The notes under the pieces: generated by a model
Told to the model about the DNA's origin: nothing
The model's database searches: none
Seen by the model: the letters and a program-made list of their open reading frames with translations, nothing else
Made by a program: the position numbers and the translations under genes
Shown here: positions 7,392-38,175 of the stretch, in pieces
How the letters are laid out: every line of letters begins with the position of its first letter
Numbering within the stretch: the first letter of the stretch is position 1
Sequence record: HM035025
Strand: one strand, 5' to 3'
DNA from: Shigella phage Shfl2
DNA length: 64,000 nt

Positions 7392-7421
7392 ATAATACCA
7401 CGGTTTGAACTTGTTGTAAAC
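7392..7421 (-). promoter_or_regulatory. Sigma70-type early promoter (-35 GTTTAC, 18-nt spacer, -10 TATTAT) with conserved upstream TTCACAAAGTTG motif
   Basis: Reverse complement of plus-strand ataata ... gtaaac; member of a repeated promoter family in this window. Confidence 0.55.
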
Positions 7422-7493
7422 AACTTTGTGAAAAATATTTTAGGGAATGATAAGAAAGGAACGATAGCTTAGAATGGTAATATACAGAATGTG

Positions 7494-7516
7494 AGAAAGA
7501 AAGGCCCAGAGGGCCC
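7494..7516 (-). terminator. Rho-independent terminator after nrdH
   Basis: Hairpin GGCCC-UCU-GGGCC followed by UUUCUUUC on the minus strand. Confidence 0.55.
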
Positions 7517-7519
7517 GTC

Positions 7520-7828
7520 TTAATCTTCTATGATATCTCTATCATATCCAAGTGAAATGAGAGTTTCTTTGAAGTGTTTAATGTTCTTTTGTCTAGAATC
7601 ATTGATGAAAATGACTGGATAACGAATGTTAAGAGATGTGAATCCAGCGCGTTTAGCAAGAGATACAATCAGTGGACGATCATACTCAATCTTACCATTA
7701 TTTGTAAGAACTTTATAGAAAGTAAAAGGAGCATTGAGCTCCTTTAGAAGTTTTGTAACTGATTGACATCCAGGACAACGACCTACTTCATCTGGAATTC
7801 CATAGACTTCAATCTTGTTTTGTTTCAC
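7520..7828 (-). CDS. nrdH: Glutaredoxin-like protein NrdH
   Basis: 102 aa; CPGC redox motif; position adjacent to nrdG/nrdD. Confidence 0.75.
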   Translation of the reverse strand: MKQNKIEVYGIPDEVGRCPGCQSVTKLLKELNAPFTFYKVLTNNGKIEYDRPLIVSLAKRAGFTSLNIRYPVIFINDSRQKNIKHFKETLISLGYDRDIIED

Positions 7829-7830
7829 AA

Positions 7831-8043
7831 CTATTCCTTACTAAGAGCAGCATTCAGCTTATTAGTAATTTTATCCAGACGCTCATTGAACTCACTAGAA
7901 GATAGTCCTTTTTCTGGAGAAATCAAACTAATCACGAAAAATATAGCAATAAAAGGAATAAGGAAAATAGCTCCAACTGCCATAAACAGAAAGAATGTTA
8001 CAGTTGTAAGAAAATCAGCTAAACCTTTACGAAATTTATACAT
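7831..8043 (-). CDS. Small membrane protein (70 aa, one predicted TM helix)
   Basis: ORF track; hydrophobic stretch VTFFLFMAVGAIFLIPFIAIFFVISLI. Confidence 0.5.
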   Translation of the reverse strand: MYKFRKGLADFLTTVTFFLFMAVGAIFLIPFIAIFFVISLISPEKGLSSSEFNERLDKITNKLNAALSKE

Positions 8044-8161
8044 TTACCTTTACCTTTAATTGATTAACCAAGCATTGATAAGTACTAAACTATATTGTGA
8101 ATAAAATTCTGGACCAAAATGAAAAATCATATCATTTATAGTATCCATAATGTAATTCAAT

Positions 8162-8632
8162 TTAATCATGTTTCCACACCCCATCGGTATTTGACCAAAG
8201 TCGCTGATTATCTGATCCTCGCCACAGCTTTTTAGTCGGAAGATTTTTCTCATACTTCCCATCAATAATAACATCAACATATTTAAGCATTTCTAGTTGT
8301 TTAATATCTTCAAACTTATATCCTGTCCACAACCAAATGCTTTTATTGGGATAAAGATTTTTTACTGTTTGAACAATACAATGAATAACATCGCGGTTAT
8401 CAGGATAAAGAGGGTCACCTCCAGTTATAGTTAATCCTTCTATATAATCATTATTCAAACATTCAATTAATTGTTTTAGTGTTTCACCAGTGAATGGAAC
8501 GCCATTTCTAGCATTCCATGTTGATTTATTATAACACCCTTCGCATTTATGCAAACAACCTGTAACGAAAAGAACGACCCTGCAACCAGGGCCATTCACA
8601 AAATCGCAAGGATAAAATCTATCATAATTCAT
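8162..8632 (-). CDS. nrdG: Anaerobic ribonucleotide reductase activating protein (radical SAM)
   Basis: 156 aa; CxxxCxxC cluster (CLHKCEGC); overlaps nrdD stop. Confidence 0.85.
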   Translation of the reverse strand: MNYDRFYPCDFVNGPGCRVVLFVTGCLHKCEGCYNKSTWNARNGVPFTGETLKQLIECLNNDYIEGLTITGGDPLYPDNRDVIHCIVQTVKNLYPNKSIWLWTGYKFEDIKQLEMLKYVDVIIDGKYEKNLPTKKLWRGSDNQRLWSNTDGVWKHD

Positions 8633-10446
8633 TGGTGTTTAACCCTATGCATGATTTCTTTATTTTTGCCAAGATTAAATCCGCGCTCGTTCGGATTTCC
8701 CAAATAACCACATGTTCTTCTTATTGTGTTCATCTTTTTAGGATCAGTTTCTCCACAGATAGAACAAACAAATCCGTTTTCAGTAGGAGTCATTTCATGG
8801 GTACTTCCGCATGTAAAACACTTATCTACTGGCATATTAACACCAAAATAATCTAAATGCTGTGCAGCATAATCCCACACGGCCTCAAGACCTTTTAAGT
8901 TATTTTTCATATCAGGAAGTTCAACATAAGAAATGTGACCACCTGTCGCAATGAAATGATATGGCGCTTCACGAGAAATCTTTTCAAACGGAGTAATATT
9001 TTCTTCTACTGAAACGTGGAAACTGTTAGTGTACCAGCCTTTATCGGTAACATCTTTTACACTTCCATATTTTTCTGTATCAAGTTTACAGAAGCGGTAA
9101 CAAAGGTTTTCAGCAGGAGTCGAATATAAACTAAAAGCAAATCCGGTTCTTTCAGTCCACTGCTTAAGACGAGCATTCATTTTAGTTAAAATTTCTTGTC
9201 CAATATCACGACCGACAAGAATATTCAATTCGTGAATACCAATGTATCCCAAAGACACTGAACTTCTGCCGTTTTTAAATAACTCAATTATATCGTCATC
9301 AGGTTTAAGACGAACCCCGAATGCACCTTCTTGGTAAAGAATAGGAGCAACAGTCGCTTTAACTCCTTTTAAGGAACTAATTCTACACATCAATGCTTCA
9401 AAACATAAATCCATTCGCTCATTGAATAATTCAGTAAATTTCTGTTCATTGAACTGTGTTCCAATATAAGAATCTAACGCGATGCGAGGAAGATTCAGTG
9501 TTACAACACCAAGATTATTACGTCCATCAAGAATTTCATTACCAGTCGAATCTTTCCATACGCTCAAGAAACTACGGCAACCCATTGGAGAAACAGGAAC
9601 AGATGAACCAGTGATAGCTTTATTGTTCTTAGCCGAAATGATGTCAGGATACATTCTTTTGCTTGCGCATTCTAAAGCAAGCTGCTTAATATCATAGTTC
9701 GGATCGTCTTTATAAAGATTAACACCTTCTTCAACGAACATAACAAGTTTAGGGAAAATAGGAGTTATCCCGTCACGACCAAGACCTTTAATACGATTTT
9801 TCAGAATTGCTTTCTGAATCATTCGTTCAGTCCAGTCAGTTCCCGTACCAAATGTAATTGTTACAAAAGGCGTTTGCCCGTTTGAACTAAAAAGAGTATT
9901 TACTTCATATTCATAAGCTTGAAATGCATCGTATACGTCTTTTTCTGTTTTAGATTGAGCATAATTCAACGCATCAGCGATTTGCCATTTTTCTGCATCT
10001 TCAATATGTTTTGCATAGGTGCGTTTAACATAAGGAGAAAGTACTTTATCTACATTCGCAAAAGTCGTTCCGCCGTATTGATGGGAAGCAACCTGTGCAG
10101 TAATTTGTGCCATAATTGCAGTAGCAACACCGATTGATTTAGGAGTTTCAATCTGTGCATTACCGAGCTTAAATCCGTTCTCAAGCATTCCTTTTAAATC
10201 TACTAAACAGCAATTAGTAAATGGAAGAGCAGGGGAATAATCAATATCATGGAAATGGATAATTCCGCTTTCATGTGCTTTCATAATAAAAGACGGGACC
10301 ATATTTTTGGCAATGTGCTTAGACACAATACCAGCCATAAGGTCCCGTTGAGTTGGAAAAACACGAGAATCTTTATTAGCATTCTCGTTTAAAAGGTCTT
10401 TATTAGTTTTATGAATCAATCCTTCAATTTCTTTTTCAATTGTCAT
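8629..10446 (-). CDS. nrdD: Anaerobic ribonucleoside-triphosphate reductase (glycyl radical enzyme), uninterrupted
   Basis: 605 aa continuous ORF; C-terminal glycyl-radical motif RRTCGYLG and Zn-ribbon CFTCG...CSICG; no intron. Confidence 0.93.
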   Translation of the reverse strand: MTIEKEIEGLIHKTNKDLLNENANKDSRVFPTQRDLMAGIVSKHIAKNMVPSFIMKAHESGIIHFHDIDYSPALPFTNCCLVDLKGMLENGFKLGNAQIETPKSIGVATAIMAQITAQVASHQYGGTTFANVDKVLSPYVKRTYAKHIEDAEKWQIADALNYAQSKTEKDVYDAFQAYEYEVNTLFSSNGQTPFVTITFGTGTDWTERMIQKAILKNRIKGLGRDGITPIFPKLVMFVEEGVNLYKDDPNYDIKQLALECASKRMYPDIISAKNNKAITGSSVPVSPMGCRSFLSVWKDSTGNEILDGRNNLGVVTLNLPRIALDSYIGTQFNEQKFTELFNERMDLCFEALMCRISSLKGVKATVAPILYQEGAFGVRLKPDDDIIELFKNGRSSVSLGYIGIHELNILVGRDIGQEILTKMNARLKQWTERTGFAFSLYSTPAENLCYRFCKLDTEKYGSVKDVTDKGWYTNSFHVSVEENITPFEKISREAPYHFIATGGHISYVELPDMKNNLKGLEAVWDYAAQHLDYFGVNMPVDKCFTCGSTHEMTPTENGFVCSICGETDPKKMNTIRRTCGYLGNPNERGFNLGKNKEIMHRVKHQ

Positions 10447-11443: not shown

Positions 11444-11565
11444 GTCCCATCTCCATATCAATTAAGTCATTTATTGTAGGTTCATTATATACTGTTTCTT
11501 CATCAGTGTAAACCGGTTCTTCCGGCTCTGGCTCTACAGTTTCCCATCTAGCCGCCCACCAAGGT

Positions 11566-16731: not shown

Positions 16732-17139
16732 TCACTCAATTTCAATTTTACTAAATACACAGAATATGATTGAACAGACTACATAAGCACCACACACAGA
16801 TTGAACTAATACCATCCCAAAGAACCAAACAATATTATCAAACAGTGTCTGTTTTACGTCGAAAGGACGTAAACTTACAGTAATATTATCACCTTTTTCT
16901 ATTGAAGAATACATCTCTGGGGAAATATATTCACTAAATCTATAACCGTCTTTAAGTTCATATACGGCAATAAACGATAAACTAGACCCTTTTCCTTGTG
17001 TTCCTGTAATGGTATTAACTACAGTAACATCATAATCTTTATAATGCATATAATCATTAATTGCGTAATAACCGTATGCAACTACTACACATAAACAACA
17101 TATCAATAAATTCAATCTTTTAATTATCAACTGTTTCAT
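16732..17139 (-). CDS. Membrane protein (135 aa, TM helices at both ends)
   Basis: ORF track; hydrophobic N- and C-terminal segments. Confidence 0.5.
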   Translation of the reverse strand: MKQLIIKRLNLLICCLCVVVAYGYYAINDYMHYKDYDVTVVNTITGTQGKGSSLSFIAVYELKDGYRFSEYISPEMYSSIEKGDNITVSLRPFDVKQTLFDNIVWFFGMVLVQSVCGAYVVCSIIFCVFSKIEIE

Positions 17140-17194
17140 AATAATCTCAATTAAAAGGGCTTAGAACCATTATACCATCCTTGGTATAAAGCGG

Positions 17195-17722
17195 TTATGC
17201 GAGTACCGTCTTTAACCGTTCTTCAAACTTCCGAAGAGTATTTTGGCGTTCAGCTCTTTGCTTTTTGTAAGTTTCAATACGCTCTGAAATGAGAGTGTAT
17301 CGTTCATTTACTGATTCTTTCATAAAATCAGGAATTTCACGAGAAGCTTTAATCTCATCAAATTTATCAATAACAGCTTGCTCTTCAGCAATTAAGTTAT
17401 CATACATTAAAATATCTTTCTTGATGAACTCAATATCTTCTTGAGTTACACGAGATAATTTAGATGCTTTATCCTTTTTGTACTGTTCGTTAGTATCACG
17501 AGACCAGTGTAATGTACGATTTTTATTCGTATTTTTGTAAATTTCTACAATACCAATTTCATCAATAATAACGATCCAATTCCAACGGGATTTGTAAATT
17601 TGTCCTCCATCAACAGTGATTTCACCTCCGATTGAGATGTCATTAAAGAACTTACTCTGTGCTTCAGATTTAAATTTACCATCGTTGTAATTTACTAAGT
17701 TGAAAATATCTTTAGCGTTCAT
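17195..17722 (-). CDS. Hypothetical protein (~175 aa) with C-terminal coiled coil
   Basis: ORF track N-terminus (..CGTIQLSTTEEQK) is read-through of the promoter repeat; ATG at 17722 with SD GGAGGAA. Confidence 0.55.
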   Translation of the reverse strand: MNAKDIFNLVNYNDGKFKSEAQSKFFNDISIGGEITVDGGQIYKSRWNWIVIIDEIGIVEIYKNTNKNRTLHWSRDTNEQYKKDKASKLSRVTQEDIEFIKKDILMYDNLIAEEQAVIDKFDEIKASREIPDFMKESVNERYTLISERIETYKKQRAERQNTLRKFEERLKTVLA

Positions 17723-17747
17723 TTTCTGTTCCTCCGTAGTTGATAGT

Positions 17748-17777
17748 TGTATAGTACCACAGAGGAACAGTCTTGTA
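17748..17777 (-). promoter_or_regulatory. Early promoter cassette (-35 GTTTAC, -10 TACTAT, conserved TGGTACTATACAACTATCAAC initial region, flanking hairpin)
   Basis: Member of repeated promoter/stem-loop family. Confidence 0.55.
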
Positions 17778-17782
17778 AACAA

Positions 17783-18097
17783 CTAAAAGAAACTTCTTTC
17801 ACAATTTTTTCCACTGAACCAAGCACTTACCGCTTTCTTAGTCTCAGGAGCAGTGTTATCCATAAACCATTCAAAGGCAGCCTTTTTATGATTCTGGAGG
17901 GCTTCTCGGGCTTTAATCTGCTCACGGTCTATTAACACTAACATATGAGCCTTTCTTGTCACAATGGGCTTCTTATGATTTTTTGAATACTCCCAATCAT
18001 TTGTCCATCGCATTGTCGTTGCGAACTGAAATACTGCTTCTTTAATTTTAGTTTCGTAAATTTCACGAGCCTTTGAGTATAACATCACTACCTCCAT
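17783..18097 (-). CDS. Hypothetical protein (104 aa)
   Basis: ORF track. Confidence 0.5.
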   Translation of the reverse strand: MEVVMLYSKAREIYETKIKEAVFQFATTMRWTNDWEYSKNHKKPIVTRKAHMLVLIDREQIKAREALQNHKKAAFEWFMDNTAPETKKAVSAWFSGKNCERSFF

Positions 18098-18186
18098 TCA
18101 CCAGTTTAATTCTAGTCATCTTTTTGATGGCAGTCCATATAATCTATTTCTGAACTGCCTTTTTGTCATAGAAGTCCTCTTATGAA

Positions 18187-19155
18187 TTATTTCAGAAGAG
18201 TAACTTCAGCGATTTCTTCCCAACCGTTTTTGTCGGTCATAATAAAGTCAGCAAGATAAAGAGCAGTACGCAGTGAAACATTGCGTAAACGATTAACATT
18301 AACTTTCATCCATGATAATGCTTTATAAGTTTCTTCATCAGAAAGACCGCGCTTTTGCATCATGTCAGTTGAAAGAATAACATCTTCAACCCTGACCATA
18401 ATTTCTTCATTAGTGTGAACACCCAAATCTAAATAAACTGAGCGGGACACTAATGCTTGTAAGTGTGGAGCAAGTTTAGTACCACGGTCTAATTCGCGGT
18501 CAATGTCAACGTTTGTGATAAAAACAATCGTTCCTTTAAATTCAAACTCACGGTCAATGCCTTTTTCTTCTAAGTAAGAAGATGCAGTGCTCCAGCAGAC
18601 TTTACGGGTCTCTCCGGTGTCCAGAGCGGCTTTTAGAAGATTAAGAATGTCCATATCAGAGAAAACATCCACATCATCAATCAAAAGGACAGAATTCTCT
18701 TCACGATTATTCCAAAGCTGCTCATAAAGACCAATACCAGAGATTTTACCATTAATGCTTTTATATTCAATGTATCCAATATCATTTGCTTTATTTAAAG
18801 CTTTATCTAAAGAATACGTTTTACCAATACCTGCTGCGCCAGAGATAATCAATGAACGAATATTTCCGTTAATAATACCATTCGTCATCATTCCCATAAC
18901 ATTAAATCTTTTATTAATGCGGGTTTTCATATCTTCATACGATTCTTTAACTTCTTCAACTTTTACACCATCATATGAAATATCTGATTTGTAAACCCAA
19001 ACACCGCGACGTTTACCGTCAATTTCAACAAAAACTTTACCATCTCCTTGTGCATCTACCGGAGCATTATCTGGGAACCATTCGCCTAAGAGCTCAAAAG
19101 TTCCAGAGATTTCTTTACCGAAGTAGATACCCTTATTGATAGTTACAGTTTTCAT
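18187..19155 (-). CDS. P-loop ATPase (AAA-like), ~322 aa
   Basis: Walker A GAAGIGKT and Walker B VLLIDDVD; ORF track N-terminus is promoter read-through, ATG at 19155 with SD GGAG. Confidence 0.6.
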   Translation of the reverse strand: MKTVTINKGIYFGKEISGTFELLGEWFPDNAPVDAQGDGKVFVEIDGKRRGVWVYKSDISYDGVKVEEVKESYEDMKTRINKRFNVMGMMTNGIINGNIRSLIISGAAGIGKTYSLDKALNKANDIGYIEYKSINGKISGIGLYEQLWNNREENSVLLIDDVDVFSDMDILNLLKAALDTGETRKVCWSTASSYLEEKGIDREFEFKGTIVFITNVDIDRELDRGTKLAPHLQALVSRSVYLDLGVHTNEEIMVRVEDVILSTDMMQKRGLSDEETYKALSWMKVNVNRLRNVSLRTALYLADFIMTDKNGWEEIAEVTLLK

Positions 19156-19163
19156 TTTATTCT

Positions 19164-19235
19164 CCAAATCCGTATCAGTTGATAGTTGTATAGTACCATC
19201 CAAATCCGTATCAGTTGATAGTTGTATAGTACCAT
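19164..19235. repeat. Perfect tandem duplication of a 36-bp unit (2 x ccaaatccgtatcagttgatagttgtatagtaccat)
   Basis: Copies at 19164-19199 and 19200-19235 are identical; unit contains the promoter -10/initial transcribed motif. Confidence 0.9.
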
Positions 19236-19255
19236 AAAGCTTTATGCCTGTAAAC
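19226..19255 (-). promoter_or_regulatory. Early promoter cassette (-35 GTTTAC, -10 TACTAT) driving the ATPase gene
   Basis: Only the distal repeat copy has a -35 at correct spacing. Confidence 0.55.
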
Positions 19256-19278
19256 CGTTTTGTGAAAAATTTTTAAAA

Positions 19279-19302
19279 TAAAAAGGGAGCCCGAAGGCTC
19301 CC
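19279..19302 (-). terminator. Rho-independent terminator (GGGAGCC-UUCG-GGCUCCC + U-run)
   Basis: Perfect 7-bp stem with UUCG tetraloop right after the stop of the 19305..20318 gene. Confidence 0.7.
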
Positions 19303-19304
19303 TA

Positions 19305-20318
19305 TCATTTATAATAACTTCGGTGGTTTTCAAGATAAACCCTCTCAAGGAAGTCATCCCAGAAACCCATGTCTACTTTTTGCTGCATACCGTTCTTAGA
19401 AGCTTCAATAGATGCTGCTTCTACTTGATCGACCACATCTTCCAAAAACTCTTGAACAGTTTTAAATGGGTGTTTACCCAGCTTCACGTCGAGAATAAAT
19501 GGAGCGTCTTGAAGTGGATAGACTAAGTCACCAGTTTTGTAAATTTCCAATAGTTGGAGTCCACCACGACAAGCATGGCTCAGAGCTTTCCAGTCAATAC
19601 CTTCATTCGCTTCAGCCTTACGAGCACGTTCACCATATTCAGCATCTAATTTGTTCAGTGACTGCTTAAGCTCAATAAGAGAAAGCGTTGTCTGATATTT
19701 ACGACCCAATACAGTGTAGAACGTTTGTGGACCTGTTTTCTCATGATTATGGAACACCCATTCACAGAATTCGTTTTCTGGAAGACGATTCTTAATATCT
19801 TCAACTTTAGTGCGACGCTGCTTAATAGAACCATCTTCTTGGTAATCAACCCATTGCTCAGGGATTTGATTAACTACTTTCAATACATCGCGTAATGCAG
19901 CCAAACGAGAACCCTTGACACCGTATTTAGAAGCTTGCTTGCGGACATATCCTAAATAGGATTTCATGTTAGTCGTATAAAAACGAGAACGGTTGTCTTG
20001 AATAAACTTCCACACATCAGGCAAATCAGATTTAACCACTAGTTCAGGCGGAGTGTGAAGCATATCCAATGCTACAGTTTCACCATCTGCTGCTAATTTA
20101 AAGAAATACTTAAGACTGTATAGTTCATGGTCAATATCATCTTTAGTGTTTTTAGATGATGTGTTGTTAGTGTTTTTACTCATGTGCTCTTTAACATTTC
20201 CGATAAGAATATCGCGAGCAGGAGGAACAAAAATTTCTTTAAAATCTACATCAGATTCTGGGGTAGAAGTTCCATAAAGATGACTACCAAAATAGCTTTT
20301 CATTACTGTTTTCATCAT
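19305..20318 (-). CDS. Predicted nucleotidyltransferase (Pol-beta-like NTase fold), 337 aa
   Basis: N-terminal motif YFGSHLYGTSTPESDVDF fits hG[GS]x9-13Dh[DE]h; rest has no recognisable motif by eye. Confidence 0.5.
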   Translation of the reverse strand: MMKTVMKSYFGSHLYGTSTPESDVDFKEIFVPPARDILIGNVKEHMSKNTNNTSSKNTKDDIDHELYSLKYFFKLAADGETVALDMLHTPPELVVKSDLPDVWKFIQDNRSRFYTTNMKSYLGYVRKQASKYGVKGSRLAALRDVLKVVNQIPEQWVDYQEDGSIKQRRTKVEDIKNRLPENEFCEWVFHNHEKTGPQTFYTVLGRKYQTTLSLIELKQSLNKLDAEYGERARKAEANEGIDWKALSHACRGGLQLLEIYKTGDLVYPLQDAPFILDVKLGKHPFKTVQEFLEDVVDQVEAASIEASKNGMQQKVDMGFWDDFLERVYLENHRSYYK

Positions 20319-20776
20319 TCAGCCTTATATTCAATAACAGGACATACTTTAGCTTTACGAGCTTTTAAAAATTCGACGATAATAGATTTCTTGGGTTGAA
20401 TAGGAGGTAAACCTTTATACGCCCTATCAATATTTTCTACGTGTAAAGCATAATCCTTTTTCCATTTATAATCTTTATATTTTTCACGCAAATGTGCAGG
20501 AATAACAAATGAACCGATAATAAGTAAAACAACCAAAAGCGCAAGTATAAATGCCGATGGAAGAAGAGTCCATAAACTACCGAAAATAATCCAACGCTGT
20601 AGGCTTTCTGCACAAATAATTGTTAACCCTACGAGTATAGCACACCCAAAAATAGAAACGAAAAATGTAGGTATGGCAATAGACCAAAAATATGCGCATA
20701 GTGTCTTAGGTCGTTGCCATTCATCGTTAAACAATTTGAATAATTTATAGTGCCAAGAGTTTTCATTAATAATCAT
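20315..20776 (-). CDS. Integral membrane protein (153 aa, about 3 TM helices)
   Basis: ORF track; hydrophobic segments. Confidence 0.55.
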   Translation of the reverse strand: MIINENSWHYKLFKLFNDEWQRPKTLCAYFWSIAIPTFFVSIFGCAILVGLTIICAESLQRWIIFGSLWTLLPSAFILALLVVLLIIGSFVIPAHLREKYKDYKWKKDYALHVENIDRAYKGLPPIQPKKSIIVEFLKARKAKVCPVIEYKAE

Positions 20777-20778
20777 AA

Positions 20779-21300
20779 TTATCCTTTCATTGAAGGCGTA
20801 ACAGTTGTTAAATACTTAATCATAGCTTCAGCTTCTGATTTTGATAATGAAATTTCTCCATTGTTTTGACGAATAGAAATAAAATCCGGATGACGGTCAC
20901 CACCAGCTTTTAAAATACACATATAAGTATCAGTTTCATCTTCAATATCTGAAATGATTGAAGCAGTTCCGCATGAATGTGGTTTTTGATAAATCAATGC
21001 AGCTTTTCTTCCACCGTTTGACTGTTCATAAACTTTTAACACATCAAACAAATCACTTCTTTTATCAATAGCTAAAATGTTATTTTCATCTTCAATGTTA
21101 AATCCTTCGGATACTTCATAAAGTGTTACCCATAAATCACCAATGTCAATAACAGCATTTACGTTTCCACGGCTTTCAAGAGTATGACAAATTTTCTTGA
21201 TTTCATCATAACTCATTTTAATAATATCATCTCCTTGAATAAGGAAGATGTCATTTTTAAATTCAACGCGAATTAAACCGCTTCCACTTGAAATAAACAT
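20779..21300 (-). CDS. Hypothetical protein (173 aa), paralog of the next gene at its C-terminus
   Basis: C-terminal KSEAEAMIKYLTTVTPSM resembles KDEAIALKTYLDSVIPTM of the 21307..21864 product. Confidence 0.55.
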   Translation of the reverse strand: MFISSGSGLIRVEFKNDIFLIQGDDIIKMSYDEIKKICHTLESRGNVNAVIDIGDLWVTLYEVSEGFNIEDENNILAIDKRSDLFDVLKVYEQSNGGRKAALIYQKPHSCGTASIISDIEDETDTYMCILKAGGDRHPDFISIRQNNGEISLSKSEAEAMIKYLTTVTPSMKG

Positions 21301-21306
21301 ATTTCC

Positions 21307-21864
21307 TCACTTTGAAATCATAGTTGGAATAACAGAATCAAGATAAGTCTTTAGTGCAATAGCTTCGTCTTTGTTTAATGTAATGATATGTGATCGAAAA
21401 TCGTCAATTTGACGAATAGATACTACATCTCCCTCTTCATAGCATTTTGACACATTTAAAATAGTTTCATCATTCTGATTACAGGAGTTAGTAATAATAG
21501 CATTACATTTTTTAAACCATTTTAAATTATGTTTTCTTTTAGTAGAATCATAAAAATATTTAATGTTAGTTATAAAATTATCCCAATTATTAATTGATAA
21601 GCACATTGACTCGCTTTTAATATTAAATCCTGGGCATGAAGAATAAAAATGAATTTTATGCTCATCATTAATGTTTACAATTTTATCAGTGTAAGCATAT
21701 TCAATTTGGGTTAAACGAACAATTTCACTAGGCGTAAAATATAACATATCATCTTCTTGCGTCAAACGATACATGTTATTTACTTTTTCGATCGCTAATT
21801 CACCAAAAAGCACACTATCTTCTAATACTAATCGTTTCATATTGATTCTCTTCGACTCACTCAC
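21307..21864 (-). CDS. Hypothetical protein (185 aa, GTG start)
   Basis: ORF track; SD AAGGAG upstream of GTG. Confidence 0.55.
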   Translation of the reverse strand: MSESKRINMKRLVLEDSVLFGELAIEKVNNMYRLTQEDDMLYFTPSEIVRLTQIEYAYTDKIVNINDEHKIHFYSSCPGFNIKSESMCLSINNWDNFITNIKYFYDSTKRKHNLKWFKKCNAIITNSCNQNDETILNVSKCYEEGDVVSIRQIDDFRSHIITLNKDEAIALKTYLDSVIPTMISK

Positions 21865-21999
21865 AATTACATACTCCTTTGAATAATATCAATAATGTTG
21901 TTCACCAGATTATAAGTAAACATCGGGTGATAATATTGAATCATCACATACACAACAAACAAAATTTTCATTCTCTTCTCCTTGGCAGTTGACAAGATT

Positions 22000-22029
22000 A
22001 CTATACCATAACCTTGCCAACTTGTAAAC
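22000..22029 (-). promoter_or_regulatory. Sigma70-type early promoter (-35 GTTTAC, -10 TATAGT; TTGACA-like hexamer also present)
   Basis: Plus-strand actatacca ... gtaaac. Confidence 0.5.
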
Positions 22030-22202
22030 CATTAAATGACGTTTTCAATAAAATTCTGAAGCTTTGTGTGAGCATCAACCATGATTTTCATTTCTTCCTT
22101 TGCGAAAGCTGTACCTCTTTCTCGAGCAGAATACTCATAGTCAGAAACTGCATTAGCATATTCTTCAATTAGCTTCATTAAAAACATCTGCTTTTCAGTT
22201 TT
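22029..22202 (-). CDS. Small hypothetical protein (~57 aa, below ORF-track threshold)
   Basis: ATG overlapping the upstream stop; MKTEKQMFLMKLIEEYANAV...; coordinates approximate. Confidence 0.3.
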
Positions 22203-22389
22203 CATTATTCCACCTAATCATTTCAAGATATTGAACTAACTTAGCTTTGGATTTATCCAAATCCTTTTTAGCTGCTTCTATACCATCGTACGAATATCCT
22301 TCACAATGCTCAACTGCCAATTGGTATGAATCTATTTCAATATCACGTGCTAATTTAATGATCTTTTCAAACTGTTCACGTGTTAGCAT
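22195..22389 (-). CDS. Hypothetical protein (64 aa)
   Basis: ORF track. Confidence 0.45.
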   Translation of the reverse strand: MLTREQFEKIIKLARDIEIDSYQLAVEHCEGYSYDGIEAAKKDLDKSKAKLVQYLEMIRWNNEN

Positions 22390-22391
22390 AC

Positions 22392-22631
22392 TTAAACTCT
22401 CGTATTATGATCGATAATTTCATCAAGAAACATATCTAAAGCTTCTACAGCATTATCAACTTTAGCTTCAAGTTCTTCAGCGCCTTTATTTGCAATGCCT
22501 GCCGAAAACCAAGCAAAGTCACTAAGTTCCTCGTCTGCTTTGCGAATTAAAGCTACCAATTCTTTAATTTTATCTGCTTGTTCGATACTAATCATTATTC
22601 CACCACATATGAAAGAGAGAATATTGCACAC
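22392..22631 (-). CDS. Hypothetical protein (79 aa)
   Basis: ORF track. Confidence 0.45.
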
Positions 22632-22783
22632 GCCATGTGAGTTGCAACTTCATCACACATATTATAACGTTTCTTAAGAAGTTCTACAAGTTCTTCACTA
22701 GTAACTTCATCCATGTCGACGAAAAAATCACCATTAATGATGACGTAGATATTTCCTTCTTGATTGAGTGCTTCAATTTTCAT
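22595..22783 (-). CDS. Hypothetical protein (~62 aa from internal ATG)
   Basis: ORF track N-terminus (MSCGTIQLS...) is promoter read-through; Met at 22783. Confidence 0.4.
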
Positions 22784-22811
22784 GATGTTCTCCTCTTTAT
22801 CCGATAGTTGT

Positions 22812-22841
22812 ATAGTACCACAGCTCAAACGGAAAGTAAAC
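22812..22841 (-). promoter_or_regulatory. Early promoter cassette (-35 GTTTAC, -10 TACTAT)
   Basis: Member of repeated promoter family. Confidence 0.55.
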
Positions 22842-22851
22842 CGGTAAAATG

Positions 22852-22873
22852 AAAAAAGTCTCCCGAAGGAGAC
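22852..22873 (-). terminator. Rho-independent terminator (GUCUCC-UUCG-GGAGAC + U6)
   Basis: Perfect hairpin followed by T-run on the minus strand, 3' of the 22879..23265 gene. Confidence 0.7.
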
Positions 22874-22878
22874 TAATG

Positions 22879-23265
22879 TTATTCGAGGGAAAGAAGATAT
22901 TTACTCTGGTAAAACATTCCAGTAATATCATCTATCGTGCTTTGAATGGCTGGAGGCATTTCTTTATAAATGCTGTTAGATTGGTCTAGTATACGATCAA
23001 TCATTTTAATTGTGTCGGTAGGAAGTTTACTAGCATCTGGAATTGAAGGTGTGTATTTTCTACCAGAATACCCCAAATATTGCTCACCAAATTTATCAAT
23101 CAAATCTGGCAACTCAGAGAAAATAAAATCGTATGCTTTGTGTCTAGCATAACTTTTAGTTTCAAAATGTGCAGAATGAAAATAAGCTTGTGCAGCCATT
23201 AATAAACCTAAGTATTCATCTGCCTTTGAAGGTTTTCCACTTTGTGAAAAGTCGCTGAATTTCAT
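22879..23265 (-). CDS. Hypothetical protein (128 aa)
   Basis: ORF track; immediately downstream of rI. Confidence 0.5.
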
Positions 23266-25632: not shown

Positions 25633-25976
25633 CTAGTACTCAATCCTCGATTATAAGAATCTACTAAACGGTCAACCATTGAATGACAAGCGGCTTTATC
25701 TTTCTCCTCCGCAACTGAACATTCTAAGGTATTCCACTTTTTAGCATATCGTTTTAACAATGTATCATTTTTATATCTACTTGATTTATCTCTTTCTCCG
25801 TCTTTATATGCATATATTAATTTCTGCGCAAATTCAGCTTGGCATGCTTTATTTTTCCCACAATAATCTGCCGCAGTGCGGTTTACATATTCTCTAATTT
25901 CAGTATATGATGTATCTGCTGACGCATAAGCAGAAAATGAAATTAATCCTATACATAAAACCAAAATTTTAGTCAT
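25629..25976 (-). CDS. Small secreted protein with N-terminal signal peptide (115 aa); occupies the position of T4 vs
   Basis: Signal peptide MTKILVLCIGLISFSAYASA; four Cys; identity with T4 vs not verifiable here. Confidence 0.5.
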   Translation of the reverse strand: MTKILVLCIGLISFSAYASADTSYTEIREYVNRTAADYCGKNKACQAEFAQKLIYAYKDGERDKSSRYKNDTLLKRYAKKWNTLECSVAEEKDKAACHSMVDRLVDSYNRGLSTR

Positions 25977-26983: not shown

Positions 26984-27010
26984 GTTATTCTCCTCTTAAC
27001 TGATAGAAAA

Positions 27011-27040
27011 ATTATACCACAGTCAAGAGGAAAAGTAAAC
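27011..27040 (-). promoter_or_regulatory. Sigma70-type early promoter (-35 GTTTAC, extended -10 TGTGGTATAAT) upstream of regB
   Basis: Plus-strand attataccaca ... gtaaac. Confidence 0.6.
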
Positions 27041-29127: not shown

Positions 29128-29189
29128 AGGTTGGCGGGAATCCCTCACAAAATCATGAGGTCCAGGTTGTTCCCATATTTCTTATTTGC

Positions 29190-29663
29190 TTATTTGAACG
29201 ATTTAACGTACTGAATAGAACCTTTACTATTCACGAAAGCGATTTTACCATTTTTATTATACATGGTAGCAGTACGCTGATAGCCGTAAGTTTGCTTACC
29301 AGATTGATAACCAACTAATGCAAAATTATCTTCACCCATTTTATTCTGTTTAGCGCGAATGCGTTCATGACCATGTGCCATAAGAACCTTAGCATCACCA
29401 GTTGCAATGGATCGACGAGTTTTTTCATCTTCAACTGTATTAACAAAGTCGTCAAATGAATCAAATTTAGCGTGAGATTTATTATACAGTTTTCCATCTA
29501 CTGCATAATTATATCCCTGTACATCCATCTCAACTTCTGTACCATCATCCAATACAGCAGTGATTTTCTGTCCTTTTTTAAATTTCAAAAGATCAGTAAA
29601 AGATTCAGCAATAATTTGAGAATTAATAGCTGCTTCAGTAATAAATTCTTGATATGTTTTCAT
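29190..29663 (-). CDS. Internal protein with capsid-targeting sequence (ipII locus; 157 aa)
   Basis: N-terminus MKTYQEFITE|AA with the (L/I)xE prohead-protease site; directly downstream of ipIII. Confidence 0.65.
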   Translation of the reverse strand: MKTYQEFITEAAINSQIIAESFTDLLKFKKGQKITAVLDDGTEVEMDVQGYNYAVDGKLYNKSHAKFDSFDDFVNTVEDEKTRRSIATGDAKVLMAHGHERIRAKQNKMGEDNFALVGYQSGKQTYGYQRTATMYNKNGKIAFVNSKGSIQYVKSFK

Positions 29664-29696
29664 GTGTTTCCTTTAAATGTAAATAGTTTTATTCTT

Positions 29697-29776
29697 TAAG
29701 TTTGGGACAATTCGCACGCATGAATTGTCCGTTTCTATATTTATCTATTACCGGGTTCGAACTCGGCTTTATTAAG
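29697..29776. repeat. ~80-bp direct repeat, copy B, with perfect 9-bp hairpin GGACAATTC..GAATTGTCC, between ipIII and the ipII-locus gene
   Basis: Overlaps ipIII stop codon. Confidence 0.6.
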
Positions 29777-30350
29777 AATTACCACGGGCTGCATTAGCAA
29801 CGGCATACGCGTACTGAACATTAGCGTCTTTAAACGTACCTTTAGAGGTATCTATTTCTGCCTTAAAGCCGCCTTTAGTCATAACATCGGCAAATTCTTT
29901 ACGGAAAGCCATTGCATCAAGACCTTTCCATGATGATTTATGCTTGGCGAATTCAAGACCAGCGTAGTTGACAGCCTTAGCTAATTTATTATCAATAACC
30001 CATTTACCAGCTTTAGGCACAAACTTCGGGCCTTTCTGTTTAGAGAACAGTTTTAAATTCCAGCGGCGAAGGTCACTGTCGGCTTTAACAAAAGCTGCGT
30101 CTAAGTTACTAGCAACAACATCTTCAATATGAGCAAATTTAAGTCCGTCAACTTCAATATTTAGATCGGTACGCCAGCGAAGTCCTTCCCAAGCGAAGGC
30201 TTTAAAATCGGAAGCTTTTGTAGCTAAGTATCGTTCAATAGGGGCTGTTTTAGGGTCAAAGCCGTTTCCTCGGTAAGTCCACTCGTCTTTATTAATGCCT
30301 TTGGCCTTTTCAACAGAAGCTTCAGCGATAAATTCTTTATACGTTTTCAT
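29772..30350 (-). CDS. ipIII: Internal protein III
   Basis: 192 aa; N-terminal CTS MKTYKEFIAE; near-identical to T4 IPIII as recalled. Confidence 0.85.
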   Translation of the reverse strand: MKTYKEFIAEASVEKAKGINKDEWTYRGNGFDPKTAPIERYLATKASDFKAFAWEGLRWRTDLNIEVDGLKFAHIEDVVASNLDAAFVKADSDLRRWNLKLFSKQKGPKFVPKAGKWVIDNKLAKAVNYAGLEFAKHKSSWKGLDAMAFRKEFADVMTKGGFKAEIDTSKGTFKDANVQYAYAVANAARGNS

Positions 30351-30387
30351 GTGTTTCCTTTAAATATTTTAATTAGTAACTGTGAAT

Positions 30388-30417
30388 ATACTATCACAGT
30401 TCCAAGAGAAAGTAAAC
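30388..30417 (-). promoter_or_regulatory. Early promoter cassette (-35 GTTTAC, -10 TAGTAT) with AACTGTGA..TCACAGTT stem-loop, upstream of ipIII
   Basis: Between e and ipIII. Confidence 0.55.
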
Positions 30418-30421
30418 AACT

Positions 30422-31390
<969 letters not shown>

Positions 31391-33824: not shown

Positions 33825-34113
33825 AGTATTTCCTTAGGTTAATTAAGATTTAAAATCCACGAGAGTATTATACTCCGGATAGTTTGTAAACTATTTCAAC
33901 ATCGCCTTTTGCTGCTTTATAACCTTCAGCCCAAGATACAACCGAGTTTTTATCCGAAGATTCAAATTCTGGCATTGGGCTTTCGCCAATGTTCACACAA
34001 TATGTTTCTTCATTTTCGTCAAACCAAATAATTAAAGTAGTCATTTATTTCTCCGTTTTCTGTATTTGTTTTGATAAGTCTATAATAACACCGTCCTTGG
34101 TGTTTGTACACAA

Positions 34114-34420: not shown

Positions 34421-34450
34421 ATAATACCATGGAAGAACAGGGATGTAAAC
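34421..34450 (-). promoter_or_regulatory. Early promoter cassette (-35 GTTTAC, -10 TATTAT)
   Basis: Member of repeated promoter family. Confidence 0.55.
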
Positions 34451-35611: not shown

Positions 35612-35962
35612 TTAATATTCTTTTAAAGCATCAATATGTTCACGGCGTTTACGCCATAAATCAATTGCTTCATACGCGGATTCAACATTTCGAATTGGAC
35701 GGCATTTATATAAAGATTTGTGATTTTGATATTGTGTAGATAACGGAATTTTATCTAAAAGGTCTTTACGTTCAAAATATTCGTAACCATCTAAACCAAA
35801 TGAACGATTTTTGAGAAATTGCCAATGACCATATTCATTTTCAACATAAATATAATCTGCGTGCTGATAAAGCAAATTAATTATACGTTCAGAAATAACA
35901 GTATCATTATGATTAAAATAGAATGTTAAATCATGAACTACTAAATAAACATTACCTTTCAT
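35612..35962 (-). CDS. Hypothetical protein (~116 aa; ORF track start at 36010 lies inside tRNA-Arg)
   Basis: ATG at 35962 with SD GTGAGGAAAA, just 3' of tRNA-Arg. Confidence 0.5.
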   Translation of the reverse strand: MKGNVYLVVHDLTFYFNHNDTVISERIINLLYQHADYIYVENEYGHWQFLKNRSFGLDGYEYFERKDLLDKIPLSTQYQNHKSLYKCRPIRNVESAYEAIDLWRKRREHIDALKEY

Positions 35963-35980
35963 ATTTTCCTCACTTATAAT

Positions 35981-36057
35981 TGGTCGAGACAGAAGGATTC
36001 TAACCTTCAACCCACGGATTAGAAGTCCGTTGCTCTATACAATTGAGCTATGCCTCG
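35981..36057 (-). tRNA. tRNA-Arg (anticodon UCU), CCA encoded
   Basis: Manual fold: acceptor CGAGGCA/TGTCTCG, anticodon loop CTTCTAA, T-loop GGTTAGAATCC. Confidence 0.8.
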
Positions 36058-36061
36058 TATT

Positions 36062-36136
36062 TGGCGGACGTGATAGGATTCGAACCTATAACCAATCGCT
36101 TAACAGGCGATCGCTCTGCCATTGAGCTACACATCC
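36062..36136 (-). tRNA. tRNA-Asn (anticodon GUU), CCA encoded
   Basis: Manual fold: acceptor GGATGTG/CACGTCC, anticodon stem ATCGC/GCGAT, loop CTGTTAA, T-loop TTCGAAT. Confidence 0.7.
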
Positions 36137-36140
36137 AAAT

Positions 36141-36227
36141 TGGTGGGGAGTGATGGAGTCGAACCACCCGAGTCGCAATGACAATGGATTTACAGTCCAC
36201 ACCGCTACCTCTACGGGATAACTCCCC
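36141..36227 (-). tRNA. tRNA-Tyr (anticodon GUA), class II with long variable arm, CCA encoded
   Basis: Manual fold: acceptor GGGGAGT/ACTCCCC, anticodon loop CTGTAAA, long variable arm resembling bacterial tRNA-Tyr. Confidence 0.65.
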
Positions 36228-36236
36228 AAATTAATT

Positions 36237-36311
36237 TGGTGGCCCTGGGTGGAATTGAACCACCATCTGGCGATTATGAGTCGCTTGCTTGAACCTTCCA
36301 GCTACAGGGCC
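36237..36311 (-). tRNA. tRNA-Ile/Met (anticodon CAU), CCA encoded
   Basis: Manual fold: acceptor GGCCCTG/CAGGGCC, anticodon loop CTCATAA. Confidence 0.75.
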
Positions 36312-36312
36312 T

Positions 36313-36388
36313 TGGTGCTGATTGACGGAATCGAACCGCCGACGTCCTCATTACAAGTGAGGTGCTCTACCTACTGAGCTAAATCAGC
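36313..36388 (-). tRNA. tRNA-Thr (anticodon UGU), CCA encoded
   Basis: Manual fold: acceptor GCTGATT/AATCAGC, anticodon loop CTTGTAA, T-loop GGTTCGATTCC. Confidence 0.8.
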
Positions 36389-36390
36389 AA

Positions 36391-36477
36391 CGGAGGCGAT
36401 AGGATTTGAACCTATGAGTCGCCGGAGCGACTGCCGGTTTTCAAGACCGGTGCATTAAACCACTCTGCCACGCCTCC
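36391..36477 (-). tRNA. tRNA-Ser (anticodon UGA), class II, CCA not encoded
   Basis: Manual fold: acceptor GGAGGCG/CGCCTCC, anticodon loop CTTGAAA, long variable arm. Confidence 0.8.
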
Positions 36478-36479
36478 AG

Positions 36480-36553
36480 TCTCCGTGGCAGGATTTGAAC
36501 CTACGACATTCTGCTCCCAAAGCAGACGCTCTACCAAACTGAGCTACACGGAG
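36480..36553 (-). tRNA. tRNA-Pro (anticodon UGG), CCA not encoded
   Basis: Manual fold: acceptor CTCCGTG/CACGGAG, anticodon loop TTTGGGA. Confidence 0.8.
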
Positions 36554-36563
36554 TAAATTAAAT

Positions 36564-36637
<74 letters not shown>

Positions 36638-36642
36638 AAATT

Positions 36643-36729
36643 TGGTGCGAGAAGTGGGACTCGAACCCACAAGGAAATCATTCCGCAGCATTTTAAGTGC
36701 TGTGCCTTTACCAATTTGGCCATTCTCGC
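36643..36729 (-). tRNA. tRNA-Leu (anticodon UAA), class II, CCA encoded
   Basis: Manual fold: acceptor GCGAGAA/TTCTCGC, anticodon loop CTTAAAA, long variable arm. Confidence 0.8.
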
Positions 36730-36730
36730 G

Positions 36731-36803
36731 CTGGGAATAAAGGACTCGAACCTTTGCATCCTGGAATCAAAATCCAGTGCCTTACCAACTTGGCTAATTC
36801 CCA
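36731..36803 (-). tRNA. tRNA-Gln (anticodon UUG)
   Basis: Manual fold: acceptor TGGGAAT/ATTCCCA, anticodon loop TTTTGAT; first tRNA of the transcript. Confidence 0.8.
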
Positions 36804-37188: not shown

Positions 37189-37190
37189 TA

Positions 37191-37601
37191 TCAGCCTCTA
37201 TCAACGATAGTATGAGTATGGGCATTTACGATTTGCCACCAGTCGAAACGATTGGAACCATAATCTGGTTTATTTTCATTTTCTTTAATGATATCACGCA
37301 GCTTATCTTCTGTTTCAGCATACGCAATTAAATCATCATACCCACCGCAAGGATAATAATTATCACCTGCGAATAAAAGAAAATTTACCTTAGATGGATT
37401 TACGTAATAATGGTCTTTAGGATATTTAGTTCCTCTCCAATCAGTTACTTCAACATAACGGTAAGAAAATCCATTTTTACTTTCAATCCAACTCCACGCT
37501 TCAAAAGGAGTATTAAAAACTCTATCAGGTATTAAATTACCTTCAAAATGAGAAGGATTTGCATAATCCCCGGCATAAACATAATATTCGTTAATACTCA
37601 T
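37191..37601 (-). CDS. Hypothetical protein (136 aa, Tyr/Trp-rich)
   Basis: ORF track. Confidence 0.5.
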   Translation of the reverse strand: MSINEYYVYAGDYANPSHFEGNLIPDRVFNTPFEAWSWIESKNGFSYRYVEVTDWRGTKYPKDHYYVNPSKVNFLLFAGDNYYPCGGYDDLIAYAETEDKLRDIIKENENKPDYGSNRFDWWQIVNAHTHTIVDRG

Positions 37602-37787
37602 TTATTCACCTTTAGAAATTTTATCCATAACGATAGCGATTAAACCAATTAAAAATGCTACTACAAGTGAAAACACATTTTCTGTTGTAGTTAATAATCC
37701 GCATATAAATCCAGCAAACATTGAAAAACTAAAAGCGGAAGCAGAAATTGCAATAGCAACATTTCGAATTAATTCACAACGTTTCAT
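37602..37787 (-). CDS. Small membrane protein (61 aa, 2 TM helices)
   Basis: ORF track; hydrophobic throughout. Confidence 0.5.
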   Translation of the reverse strand: MKRCELIRNVAIAISASAFSFSMFAGFICGLLTTTENVFSLVVAFLIGLIAIVMDKISKGE

Positions 37788-37815
37788 TTTATTCTCCTCA
37801 GTAGTTGATAGGGTA

Positions 37816-37845
37816 ATAGTATCACAACTAAAACCCTATGTAAAC
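37816..37845 (-). promoter_or_regulatory. Early promoter cassette (-35 GTTTAC, -10 TACTAT) with ATAGGGT..ACCCTAT stem-loop
   Basis: Member of repeated promoter family; upstream flank nearly identical to the 38146-38175 copy. Confidence 0.55.
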
Positions 37846-37857
37846 AACTTTGTGAAA

Positions 37858-38115
37858 TTATTTTAAATCTTCTAATCGTTTCTTCATCTTAGAACCGTTC
37901 TTAGCGATTTCGCCTGCATCAGAGCATAATGCTAAAAGCGCTTTAACTTTAGTTTGGTCTCCTTTAAAAGATGAAGGATCGACTGCAGCAGCAAGTTCTT
38001 TAATACGAGAAAAAAGACGCTCAGCTTCAGCTAAAGCCATTCCAAGTTTTACTTCCATACCGTGGGAAGATTCAGTGATAGTAGTTTTTGTAGCAAACTC
38101 TTTGAAAGTTTTCAT
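37858..38115 (-). CDS. Internal-protein-like protein with capsid-targeting sequence (ipI locus; 85 aa)
   Basis: N-terminus MKTFKEFATKTTITE|S; adjacent to 57B as ipI is in T4. Confidence 0.6.
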   Translation of the reverse strand: MKTFKEFATKTTITESSHGMEVKLGMALAEAERLFSRIKELAAAVDPSSFKGDQTKVKALLALCSDAGEIAKNGSKMKKRLEDLK

Positions 38116-38145
38116 TTTATTTTCCTAATTAATTTTGATGAGGTA

Positions 38146-38175
38146 ATAGTATCACTACCTCATCAGCATGTAAAC
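38146..38175 (-). promoter_or_regulatory. Early promoter cassette (-35 GTTTAC, -10 TACTAT) with TGATGAGGTA..TACCTCATCA stem-loop
   Basis: Member of repeated promoter family. Confidence 0.55.

Follow-up and report, generated by a model that had tools for sequence, protein, structure and literature searches.

The window studied here is a stretch of 64,000 nucleotides from Shigella phage Shfl2 (sequence record HM035025). A megablast search with positions 17000-23000 returns hundreds of Tequatrovirus genomes, topped by T2 at 96.9% identity over the full length, and by sequence similarity the window is Tequatrovirus. Its genes are on the minus strand. Positions 5000-40200 align with 39.5-76 kb of T4, and the gene order in this aligned part runs from gene 55 by way of nrdC, mobD, tk, regB, ipIII, e, the tRNA genes and ipI to gene 1. 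Between these genes, a short element keeps recurring on the minus strand. A preliminary description listed eleven copies of it, and read them as early promoters, set in or next to inverted repeats, that act as mobile cassettes at the edges of variable gene blocks. This interpretation is partly supported. The copies are very probably (roughly 93%) canonical early promoters of a T4-like phage, used by the sigma-70 RNA polymerase of the host. The mobile-cassette part of the interpretation, in which copies flank variable blocks, applies to a minority of them, and the statistics do not establish it here.

The null for motif counts is provided by dinucleotide shuffles. The pattern GTTTAC-N17-19-TANNAT has 13 matches in the window where 0.79 ± 0.89 are expected, and not one shuffle reaches 13. 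Twelve matches are on the minus strand, which is the gene-coding one, and a single match is on the plus strand. This means the repeated minus-strand element is real.

There are two different thirteens at play. The 13 pattern matches include three (at 6953, 11484 and 25881) that are not accepted as promoters. The 13 accepted promoters, numbered P1 to P13 by position, consist of the eleven copies listed earlier, plus two that come from a relaxed scan, at 34082-34111 (with GTGTAC) and 39636-39665 (with GTTTAA). Both of these have the TGn motif, and both lie immediately 5' of a gene. Nine of the listed positions are exact: 7392, 14771, 19226, 22812, 27011, 30388, 34421, 37816 and 38146. The copy that was placed at 17748 exists, but is found at 17751-17780. 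The one at 22000 (22000-22029) also exists, but its -10 is TATAGT, and it does not follow the TAnnAT that had been claimed for it.

The -35 is exactly GTTTAC in 11 of the 13 accepted copies, with one mismatch in the other two. All 13 have a 17-bp spacing in the standard register (TTTACA-17-TAnnAT), as well as TG at -15/-14 (TGn). The consensus of the aligned copies is aaTttca.aaA.tt GTTTAC at.....t....ctGTGg TAttAT a..c.TATcAacTa, so the A/T-rich, UP-element-like stretch aaTttca.aaA.tt directly abuts GTTTAC.

Also claimed were a conserved motif upstream and a conserved initial transcribed sequence. These are present, but only in about five of the 13 copies. Two copies carry the upstream 14-mer ATTTCACAAAGTTG exactly and a third carries it with one mismatch, and in all three it adjoins the -35. 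Variants next to the -35 are a three-mismatch ATTTCACAAAGTTG at 34421 and the looser TTTTCACAAAACG at 19226. At up to three mismatches, the 14-mer is not enriched in the window as a whole (14 found, 17.6 expected). The 21-mer TGGTACTATACAACTATCAAC, which spans the -10 and the initial transcribed sequence, is found five times at up to three mismatches where 0 are expected. Two of these five make up a 36-bp tandem duplication at 19178-19249.

The published T4 early consensus has GTTTAC at -36 to -31 (Nolan 2006, PMC1524935), and T4 early promoters have been called 'uber' promoters with UP, -35, TGn and -10 parts (Hinton 2010, PMC2988021). The Shfl2 elements agree with these in their hexamers, spacing, extended -10 and A-rich upstream region, and also in where they are. 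All eleven copies listed earlier are at orthologous intergenic sites in T4, co-oriented with the genes. The T4 genes 3' of them are 55.6, nrdC.4, nrdC.8, nrdC.10, mobD.2, mobD.5, regB, ipIII, e.8, trna.4 and ipI, and the regB promoter is called a typical early promoter in a review. 'Early promoters' was therefore an apt name. The same architecture is found in the Mosigvirus Shf125875 and the Dhakavirus IME08, 5' of orthologous genes and also of lineage-specific ones; for regB, nrdC.8, trna.4 and 55.6 it recurs across genera. Nothing essential sets the Shfl2 promoters apart from those of T4. Shfl2 does lack a denV or e.6 promoter, and it has an extra promoter 5' of the open reading frame (ORF) that replaces e.7, plus a 36-bp partial duplication at the nrdC.10 promoter. 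Neither of the T4 records examined (NC_000866, AF158101) carries promoter features.

From the motif statistics and the T4 orthology we infer where transcription starts. Host sigma-70 RNA polymerase would use these promoters immediately after infection. Each consists of an A/T-rich UP-like region (often AAAATAATTTCACAAAGTT), the -35 GTTTAC, a 17-bp spacer, TGn and a -10 TAnnAT, often followed by YTATCAA as the initial transcribed sequence. About 20-25 nt after the promoter comes a Shine-Dalgarno sequence, and then a small early gene begins with its start codon. The copies resemble each other mainly because of shared polymerase-contact constraints, and partly because some of them are duplicates.

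Going through the promoters in order, all on the minus strand, the span from -35 to +30 of each was folded, and z-scores are given for the result. P1 (7392-7421) lies 5' of the 55.6 homolog and has GTTTAC, TGG and a -10 TATTAT, with upstream motif TTTTCACAAAGTT. Its sequence is the same at T4 site 41677-41706. There is no hairpin spanning this promoter (z +0.5); about 80 bp upstream is a terminator-like hairpin GGGCCCTCTGGGCCT with a T-rich tail (7502-7516). P2 (14771-14800) is 5' of the nrdC.4 homolog and is orthologous in T4, ESh24, EcNP1, phiD1 and AR1. It has a small palindrome, CCACAAGGATGTGG, within the spacer (z -1.9). P3 (17751-17780, or 17726-17780 with its hairpin) precedes the nrdC.8 homolog. 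The hairpin at 17726-17770 has 15 bp, a folding energy of -23.2 kcal/mol, a z-score of -6.4 and the -10 in its loop. The spacer CTGTTCCTCTGTGG pairs with CTACGGAGGAACAG, which holds the Shine-Dalgarno sequence of the nrdC.8 homolog.

P4 (19226-19255), 5' of the nrdC.10 homolog, is orthologous in T4. Its -10 and initial transcribed sequence take part in the 36-bp perfect tandem duplication (TGGTACTATACAACTATCAACTGATACGGATTTGGA twice, 19178-19249), a unit of which T4, ESh24 and AR1 have one copy. At 19284-19303, 28 bp upstream of the P4 -35, an intrinsic-terminator-like hairpin AGGGAGCCTTCGGGCTCCCT is followed by TTTTTATTTT; the hairpin is kept in T4, EcNP1, phiD1, ESh24 and AR1. P5 (22000-22029, or 21987-22029 with its hairpin) precedes the mobD.2 homolog. 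Its hairpin at 21987-22022 folds at -19.0 kcal/mol (z -4.2), again with the -10 in the loop, and one position in the stem is A-U in T4, G.U in the window and G-C in EcNP1. P6 (22812-22841), 5' of the mobD.5 homolog and orthologous in T4, has only a weak hairpin (z -0.9). Immediately 5' of it, at 22857-22874, is another intrinsic-terminator-like hairpin, AGTCTCCTTCGGGAGACT followed by TTTTTTCATTT.

P7 is the regB promoter (27011-27040, or 26988-27040 with its hairpin), which is identical in T4. Its hairpin at 26988-27034 folds at -22.4 kcal/mol (z -5.8) with the -10 in the loop, and here the spacer TTTTCCTCTTGACTG pairs with CAGTTAAGAGGAGAA, the regB Shine-Dalgarno region. P8 is the ipIII promoter (30388-30417, or 30373-30417 with its hairpin). 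It has TAGTAT as its -10, which sits in the loop of a hairpin at 30373-30405 (z -3.2). P9 (34082-34111) has GTGTAC, TGT and a -10 TATTAT, and is found 5' of a 58-aa ORF that replaces T4 e.7. P10 (34421-34450) is 5' of the e.8 homolog and orthologous in T4. P11 (37816-37845, or 37808-37845 with its hairpin) is 5' of the trna.4 homolog, and its hairpin ATAGGGT/ACCCTAT is at 37808-37839 (z -2.3). P12 (38146-38175, or 38136-38175 with its hairpin) is 5' of an 85-aa internal-protein gene that replaces T4 ipI, and its hairpin TGATGAGGTAGTG/TATTACCTCATCA at 38136-38165 folds at -17.4 kcal/mol (z -4.4). P13 (39636-39665), a probable early promoter, has GTTTAA, TGT and a -10 TATAAT, and is 5' of gene 1 (dNMP kinase; z -1.6).

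Most copies indeed have an inverted repeat in or beside them, as was described, but these stem-loops are of several kinds, not one. Six of the 13 promoters (17751, 22000, 27011, 30388, 37816 and 38146) have a strong hairpin with the -10 in its loop, with z-scores from -2.3 to -6.4. In these six, the -35/-10 spacer pairs with the sequence just 3' of the -10. The promoters at 7392, 19226 and 22812 lack such a hairpin, and instead have a canonical G/C hairpin with a T-run upstream. Small palindromes in the spacer are found in P2, P4 and P9.

One kind would be an ordinary intrinsic terminator just upstream of the promoter. The other kind pairs the spacer with downstream sequence. It cannot form in the promoter's own transcript, and can form only in read-through RNA, or in extruded DNA. 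The pairing is specific: as a partner for the spacer, a promoter's own downstream segment does better than that of other promoters (-8.5 versus -5.2 kcal/mol, permutation p=5e-5 in the window), and this preference also holds in T4, Shf125875 and IME08.

For regB and nrdC.8, the 3' arm is the Shine-Dalgarno region. The regB case could be followed through IMG/VR, where a single-protein locus search delivered 11 close loci, and an alignment query 39. Out of 28 unique regB leader variants, 25 form a single long hairpin between the -35 and the ATG (-14.5 to -22.6 kcal/mol), and in these 25 the spacer pairs with the Shine-Dalgarno region. The arms themselves differ by lineage: CCTCTTGACTG/CAGTTAAGAGG, CCTCTAGTTG/CAACTAGAGG, CCTGTAAG/CTTACAGG, CCTTTTAGT/ACTAAAAGG and CCTCATTTG/CAAATGAGG. 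Covariation was measured by a permutation test on own-partner versus cross-partner duplex energies; a column-wise version on a MAFFT alignment was dropped, as the 3' arms are out of register there. Own partners pair at -15.7 kcal/mol and cross partners at -9.6 (p=2e-5), which is covariation across 16 lineages.

Accessibility of start codons was computed on curated T4 gene starts, as the energy it takes to unfold the stretch from -14 to +3 around each start codon. The 14 T4 genes that have an early promoter need 7.7 kcal/mol for this in read-through RNA and 2.8 in promoter-initiated RNA, a gap of 4.9. In 67 promoterless genes, which were given a dummy 22-nt leader, the gap is 1.6 (Mann-Whitney p=0.007 against the promoter genes). 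The main contributors are regB, nrdC.8, denV, e.8, gene 1 and 55.6. For example, in read-through versus promoter-initiated RNA, regB costs 18.1 versus 3.6 kcal/mol, nrdC.8 17.1 versus 3.6, gene 1 13.2 versus 4.2 and e.8 11.6 versus 2.6, where the e.8 pairing of spacer and Shine-Dalgarno is weak and long-range. Among the controls, high values are obtained for e and 49, T4 genes known to be occluded, and this validates the measure.

Some other T4 starts also stand out in this computation. Those at 71918 (segB), 40157 (gene 55), 45612 (I-TevII) and 59495 (rI) are strongly occluded in long transcripts (10.7-16.4 kcal/mol), which resembles the known cases e and 49.

What the hairpins do we infer from the covariation and the accessibility predictions, which suggest a gate on translation. 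Tentatively, and with the odds somewhat against it, a subset of the early-promoter stem-loops may be conserved RNA switches and not terminators or recombination sites, with translation only from promoter-initiated transcripts. Membership of this subset is equally tentative: regB and nrdC.8 in the window, and denV, e.8, gene 1 and 55.6 in T4 or related genera. The -35/-10 spacer would then have evolved into an anti-Shine-Dalgarno arm. In read-through transcripts, the ribosome-binding site, along with its GGAG target for RegB, would be locked in the hairpin. Transcripts from the embedded promoter do not have the 5' arm, and so would be translated. This would couple translation to the short period in which the gene's own early promoter fires.

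Something like this is known from T4 genes e, soc, 49 and I-TevI, the only occluded T4 cases in a 2010 review, all with nested late promoters. There too, transcripts that arrive from upstream have their Shine-Dalgarno sequence paired, and the transcript of the nested promoter lacks the 5' arm and can be translated. The accessibility values computed for e and 49 are similar to those of regB, nrdC.8, denV, e.8 and gene 1. The difference is that the promoter nested in those four is a late one (gp55, TATAAATA), which delays translation to late times, whereas the Shfl2 hairpins contain an early sigma-70 promoter, and this would limit translation to the first minutes. This would be a mirror image. 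The Shfl2 hairpins are predicted to work like the e, soc, 49 and I-TevI hairpins, but are not one of these cases. No early-promoter equivalent was found in the literature searched, although older T4 papers may mention one.

Breakpoints of insertions and deletions (indels) were taken from chained alignments of the window to T4, ESh24, EcNP1, phiD1 and AR1. They occur at, or within about 70 bp of, five of the 13 promoters (19226, 30388, 34082, 37816 and 38146). At the other eight there is no breakpoint at the element itself. At the nrdC.11/nrdC.10 junction (19165-19215), EcNP1 has a 476-bp cassette with two ORFs, and phiD1 a 275-bp cassette with one. Each is bounded by two promoter copies that also share the ATGAAAACT start, and each is inserted exactly where the window has its 36-bp half-promoter duplication.

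Around the ipIII promoter, the breakpoints are at 30319-30433. EcNP1 has an insertion of 1073 bp here, phiD1 has its ipIII replaced, and AR1 has it deleted. A 62-bp direct repeat (29632-29693 and 30319-30380) covers the Shine-Dalgarno region and first codons (MKTY.EFI..) of two internal-protein genes, and the loss of ipIII from AR1 is consistent with recombination through this repeat. Nearby, the place of T4 denV and ipII is taken by one 157-aa Ip4-like ORF (29190-29663, within 29178-29763). It has no early promoter, and is preceded by a hairpin GGACAATTCATGCGTGCGAATTGTCC at 29705-29730. Homologs of denV, ipI and e.7 are not found anywhere in the 64-kb window.

In the e.7 slot, the breakpoint of the replacement (34114) abuts the -35 of P9. 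Compared to the window, the T4 e.7/e.6 region amounts to a cassette swap, with gain or loss of the cassette's own promoter. The variable internal-protein (ipI) slot has P11 as its lower boundary and P12 as its upper one, with breakpoints at 37797 and 37863 at P11, and at 38081/38082 at P12. This slot and the nrdC.11/nrdC.10 junction carry comparative footprints of recombination between copies, by insertion or deletion, and the e.7 slot next to P9 is counted among these footprints.

The combination of promoter and stem-loop is not new. Promoter-early stem-loops (PeSLs) were described for phages phi1 and RB49, with promoter and terminator activity demonstrated, and with a stem-loop between -35 and -10 or overlapping the -10 as the commonest arrangement (Arbiol 2010, PMC2839356). 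The model was later extended to T4/PST and KVP40/nt-1, with a T4/PST consensus of TTTACW-N17-TAYWAT, in a paper that also refers back to an earlier observation made at the internal-protein locus of T4 (Comeau, Arbiol and Krisch 2014, PMC4122927). According to the PeSL model, promoter, leader and first codons are repeated in one orientation, so homologous recombination would occasionally insert, delete or swap the gene in between. Like PeSLs, the Shfl2 elements combine an early promoter, a stem-loop and a Shine-Dalgarno/ATG between small early ORFs, with indels or swaps at some copies. Stem-loops adjoin or overlap the promoter, as six enclose the -10 and three terminators lie upstream. The PeSLs of T4/PST have their stem-loop just upstream of the promoter (PMC4122927), whereas six of the 13 in Shfl2 enclose the -10, which is how it is most commonly done in RB49/phi1. 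As to terminators, the three upstream hairpins fit an intrinsic terminator, and the six that enclose the -10 lack a T-run. The association with variable genes is modest in the window (p=0.07). Lambdoid morons are similar in that single accessory genes, with their own promoter and sometimes a terminator, sit between conserved genes. They differ in that no repeated conserved sequence flanks them, and that their flanks are not considered a source of homology for recombination (Arbiol 2010, PMC2839356). Both the composite and its role in shuffling are already published as PeSL, so the finding is real, but already described.

Several points weigh against the promoter reading as presented here. No genome-wide set of T4 transcription starts was found in the literature searched. 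The upstream motif and initial transcribed sequence characterize too few copies (about five of 13) for 'one conserved cassette', which overstates the uniformity. Breakpoints occur at seven of 12 promoter junctions versus 20 of 64 others, an odds ratio of 3.1 that is not significant (one-sided Fisher p=0.07). Finally, a generic sigma-70 scan of this AT-rich window finds 76 sites where 73 are expected, which is what one would see if a loose AT-rich consensus had merely been matched by chance. What carries the case is therefore the T4-specific pattern, together with orthology. On these, chance has practically no probability left: it is refuted by the shuffle statistics, including strand counts of 12 to 1, by the orthology with T4 and by conservation in other genera, with the accepted copies intergenic and co-oriented with genes. 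The hairpins around the -10 could have the role that has been suggested for PeSL stem-loops, which is to terminate or attenuate transcripts from upstream. One G/C-rich RB49 stem-loop was shown to terminate, and stem-loops overlapping the -10 are common in that system (Arbiol 2010, PMC2839356); three window promoters do have canonical terminators, though upstream of the promoter. Yet no T-run comes after any of the six hairpins, and a terminator scan of the minus strand reports none of them. What the spacer conservedly pairs with at regB, nrdC.8 and other promoters is the Shine-Dalgarno region, and a terminator needs no such partner, which makes this function improbable. Even further down the scale is the idea that the inverted repeats are sites at the DNA level, either operators for a dimeric repressor that shuts off the early promoters, or cruciform targets of recombination enzymes (endonuclease VII, for instance). 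How early promoters are shut off is described in a review as incompletely understood, and the stems fold about equally well on both strands, with no overall asymmetry that would tell RNA-level from DNA-level selection (mean of sense minus antisense -1.0 kcal/mol, p=0.42). But the arm sequences vary between promoters and between lineages while their complementarity is retained, which argues against a sequence-specific operator, and that version is rejected. Moreover, RNA is a better fit for the A-U, G.U, G-C series at P5 and for the G.U pairs in the T4-type regB stem, which folds at -22.4 kcal/mol in sense and -12.5 in antisense.

This leaves the proposal that we are dealing with PeSLs in the strong sense, mobile regulatory cassettes which mediate excision, insertion or exchange of the ORFs they flank (through mini-circles, for example) and preferentially mark variable blocks. 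It is better placed than the terminators, given the breakpoints at or near five of 13 promoters, the two-promoter cassettes of EcNP1 and phiD1 at the very spot where the window has a tandem half-promoter, the swaps that bring or lose their own promoter, and the published experimental support in RB49/phi1 (Arbiol 2010, PMC2839356). It is still unlikely. All eleven listed copies are at the same positions in T4, the promoters of regB, nrdC.8, trna.4 and 55.6 keep their architecture across genera, and the excess of breakpoints at promoter junctions falls short of significance. Around one third of the indels are homing-endonuclease genes (mobB, mobC, mobD, I-TevII, segB/D/E) with no promoter at the boundary, and the deletion of ipIII in AR1 apparently used the 62-bp repeat of Shine-Dalgarno and leader codons, not a promoter. 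When gene content is compared with relatives, swaps bounded by promoters turn up at a minority of copies, and most copies are conserved in place. The early promoters look like occasional, passive patches of homology, most of them being fixed regulatory sites, with homing endonucleases responsible for a large share of the indels.

As reported, the finding is a rediscovery, from raw sequence, of the T4 early promoters and the published PeSL idea, and it adds nothing new to these. It is of use for annotation, where 13 early transcription units can now be marked and three spurious ORF extensions are accounted for. It also supplies clean small-scale examples of promoter-to-promoter recombination: the 36-bp half-promoter duplication, and the internal-protein and e.7 slots bounded by promoters. 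Of all this, the covarying pairing of spacer and Shine-Dalgarno region alone has some value for further work. If real at the RNA level, this would be a simple way to restrict translation of the RNase gene regB, and of other early genes, to the first minutes of infection.

The spurious extensions come from GTIQLS(T/D), which is encoded at four places. As the preliminary description had noted, it lengthens three six-frame ORFs, which start with TTG (17195-17782, 18187-19203 and 22595-22828).

The three pattern matches left out of the accepted set are of two sorts. Those at 6953-6982 and 11484-11513 read GTTTAC-N18-TATAAT and are within the 55.5-like and pin/49.1-like genes. They were not counted because they are inside coding sequence, without TGn and without a hairpin. 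Both recur at matching positions in T4, in a Mosigvirus and in a Dhakavirus, and could be internal promoters or merely conserved codons. The one plus-strand match, GTTTAC-N19-TATGAT at 25881-25911, has no TGn and is antisense to vs/vs.1. It is also present in T4, is probably due to chance, and was treated as such.

Compared to T4, the window is without mobC, the nrdD intron with I-TevII, and mobB, and has other sequence in place of the mobD and segB regions. The sites of these endonuclease-related indels are 4114-4139, 8612-8632, 9908-9911, 20319-21282 and 35612-36292. An Rfam scan of 6000-41000 finds ten tRNAs and nothing else, with no family at any promoter site. The ten tRNA genes stand in a row on the minus strand (35984-36803), where T4 has eight. 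Against T4, AR1 and phiD1, this block shows several insertions, including genes for seg-type endonucleases in the relatives.

Outside the window, near-identical hairpins enclosing the -10, ATAGGACTATGTTATAGTAGTCCTAT and AGGTCTATAGGCATGATACTATAGACCT, are common to several early promoters of Mosigvirus and Dhakavirus. They are found at 16216, 26344, 27636 and 34813 in Shf125875, and at 26057 and 34270 in IME08. By their sequence, these look like recently duplicated promoter modules 5' of unrelated small ORFs.

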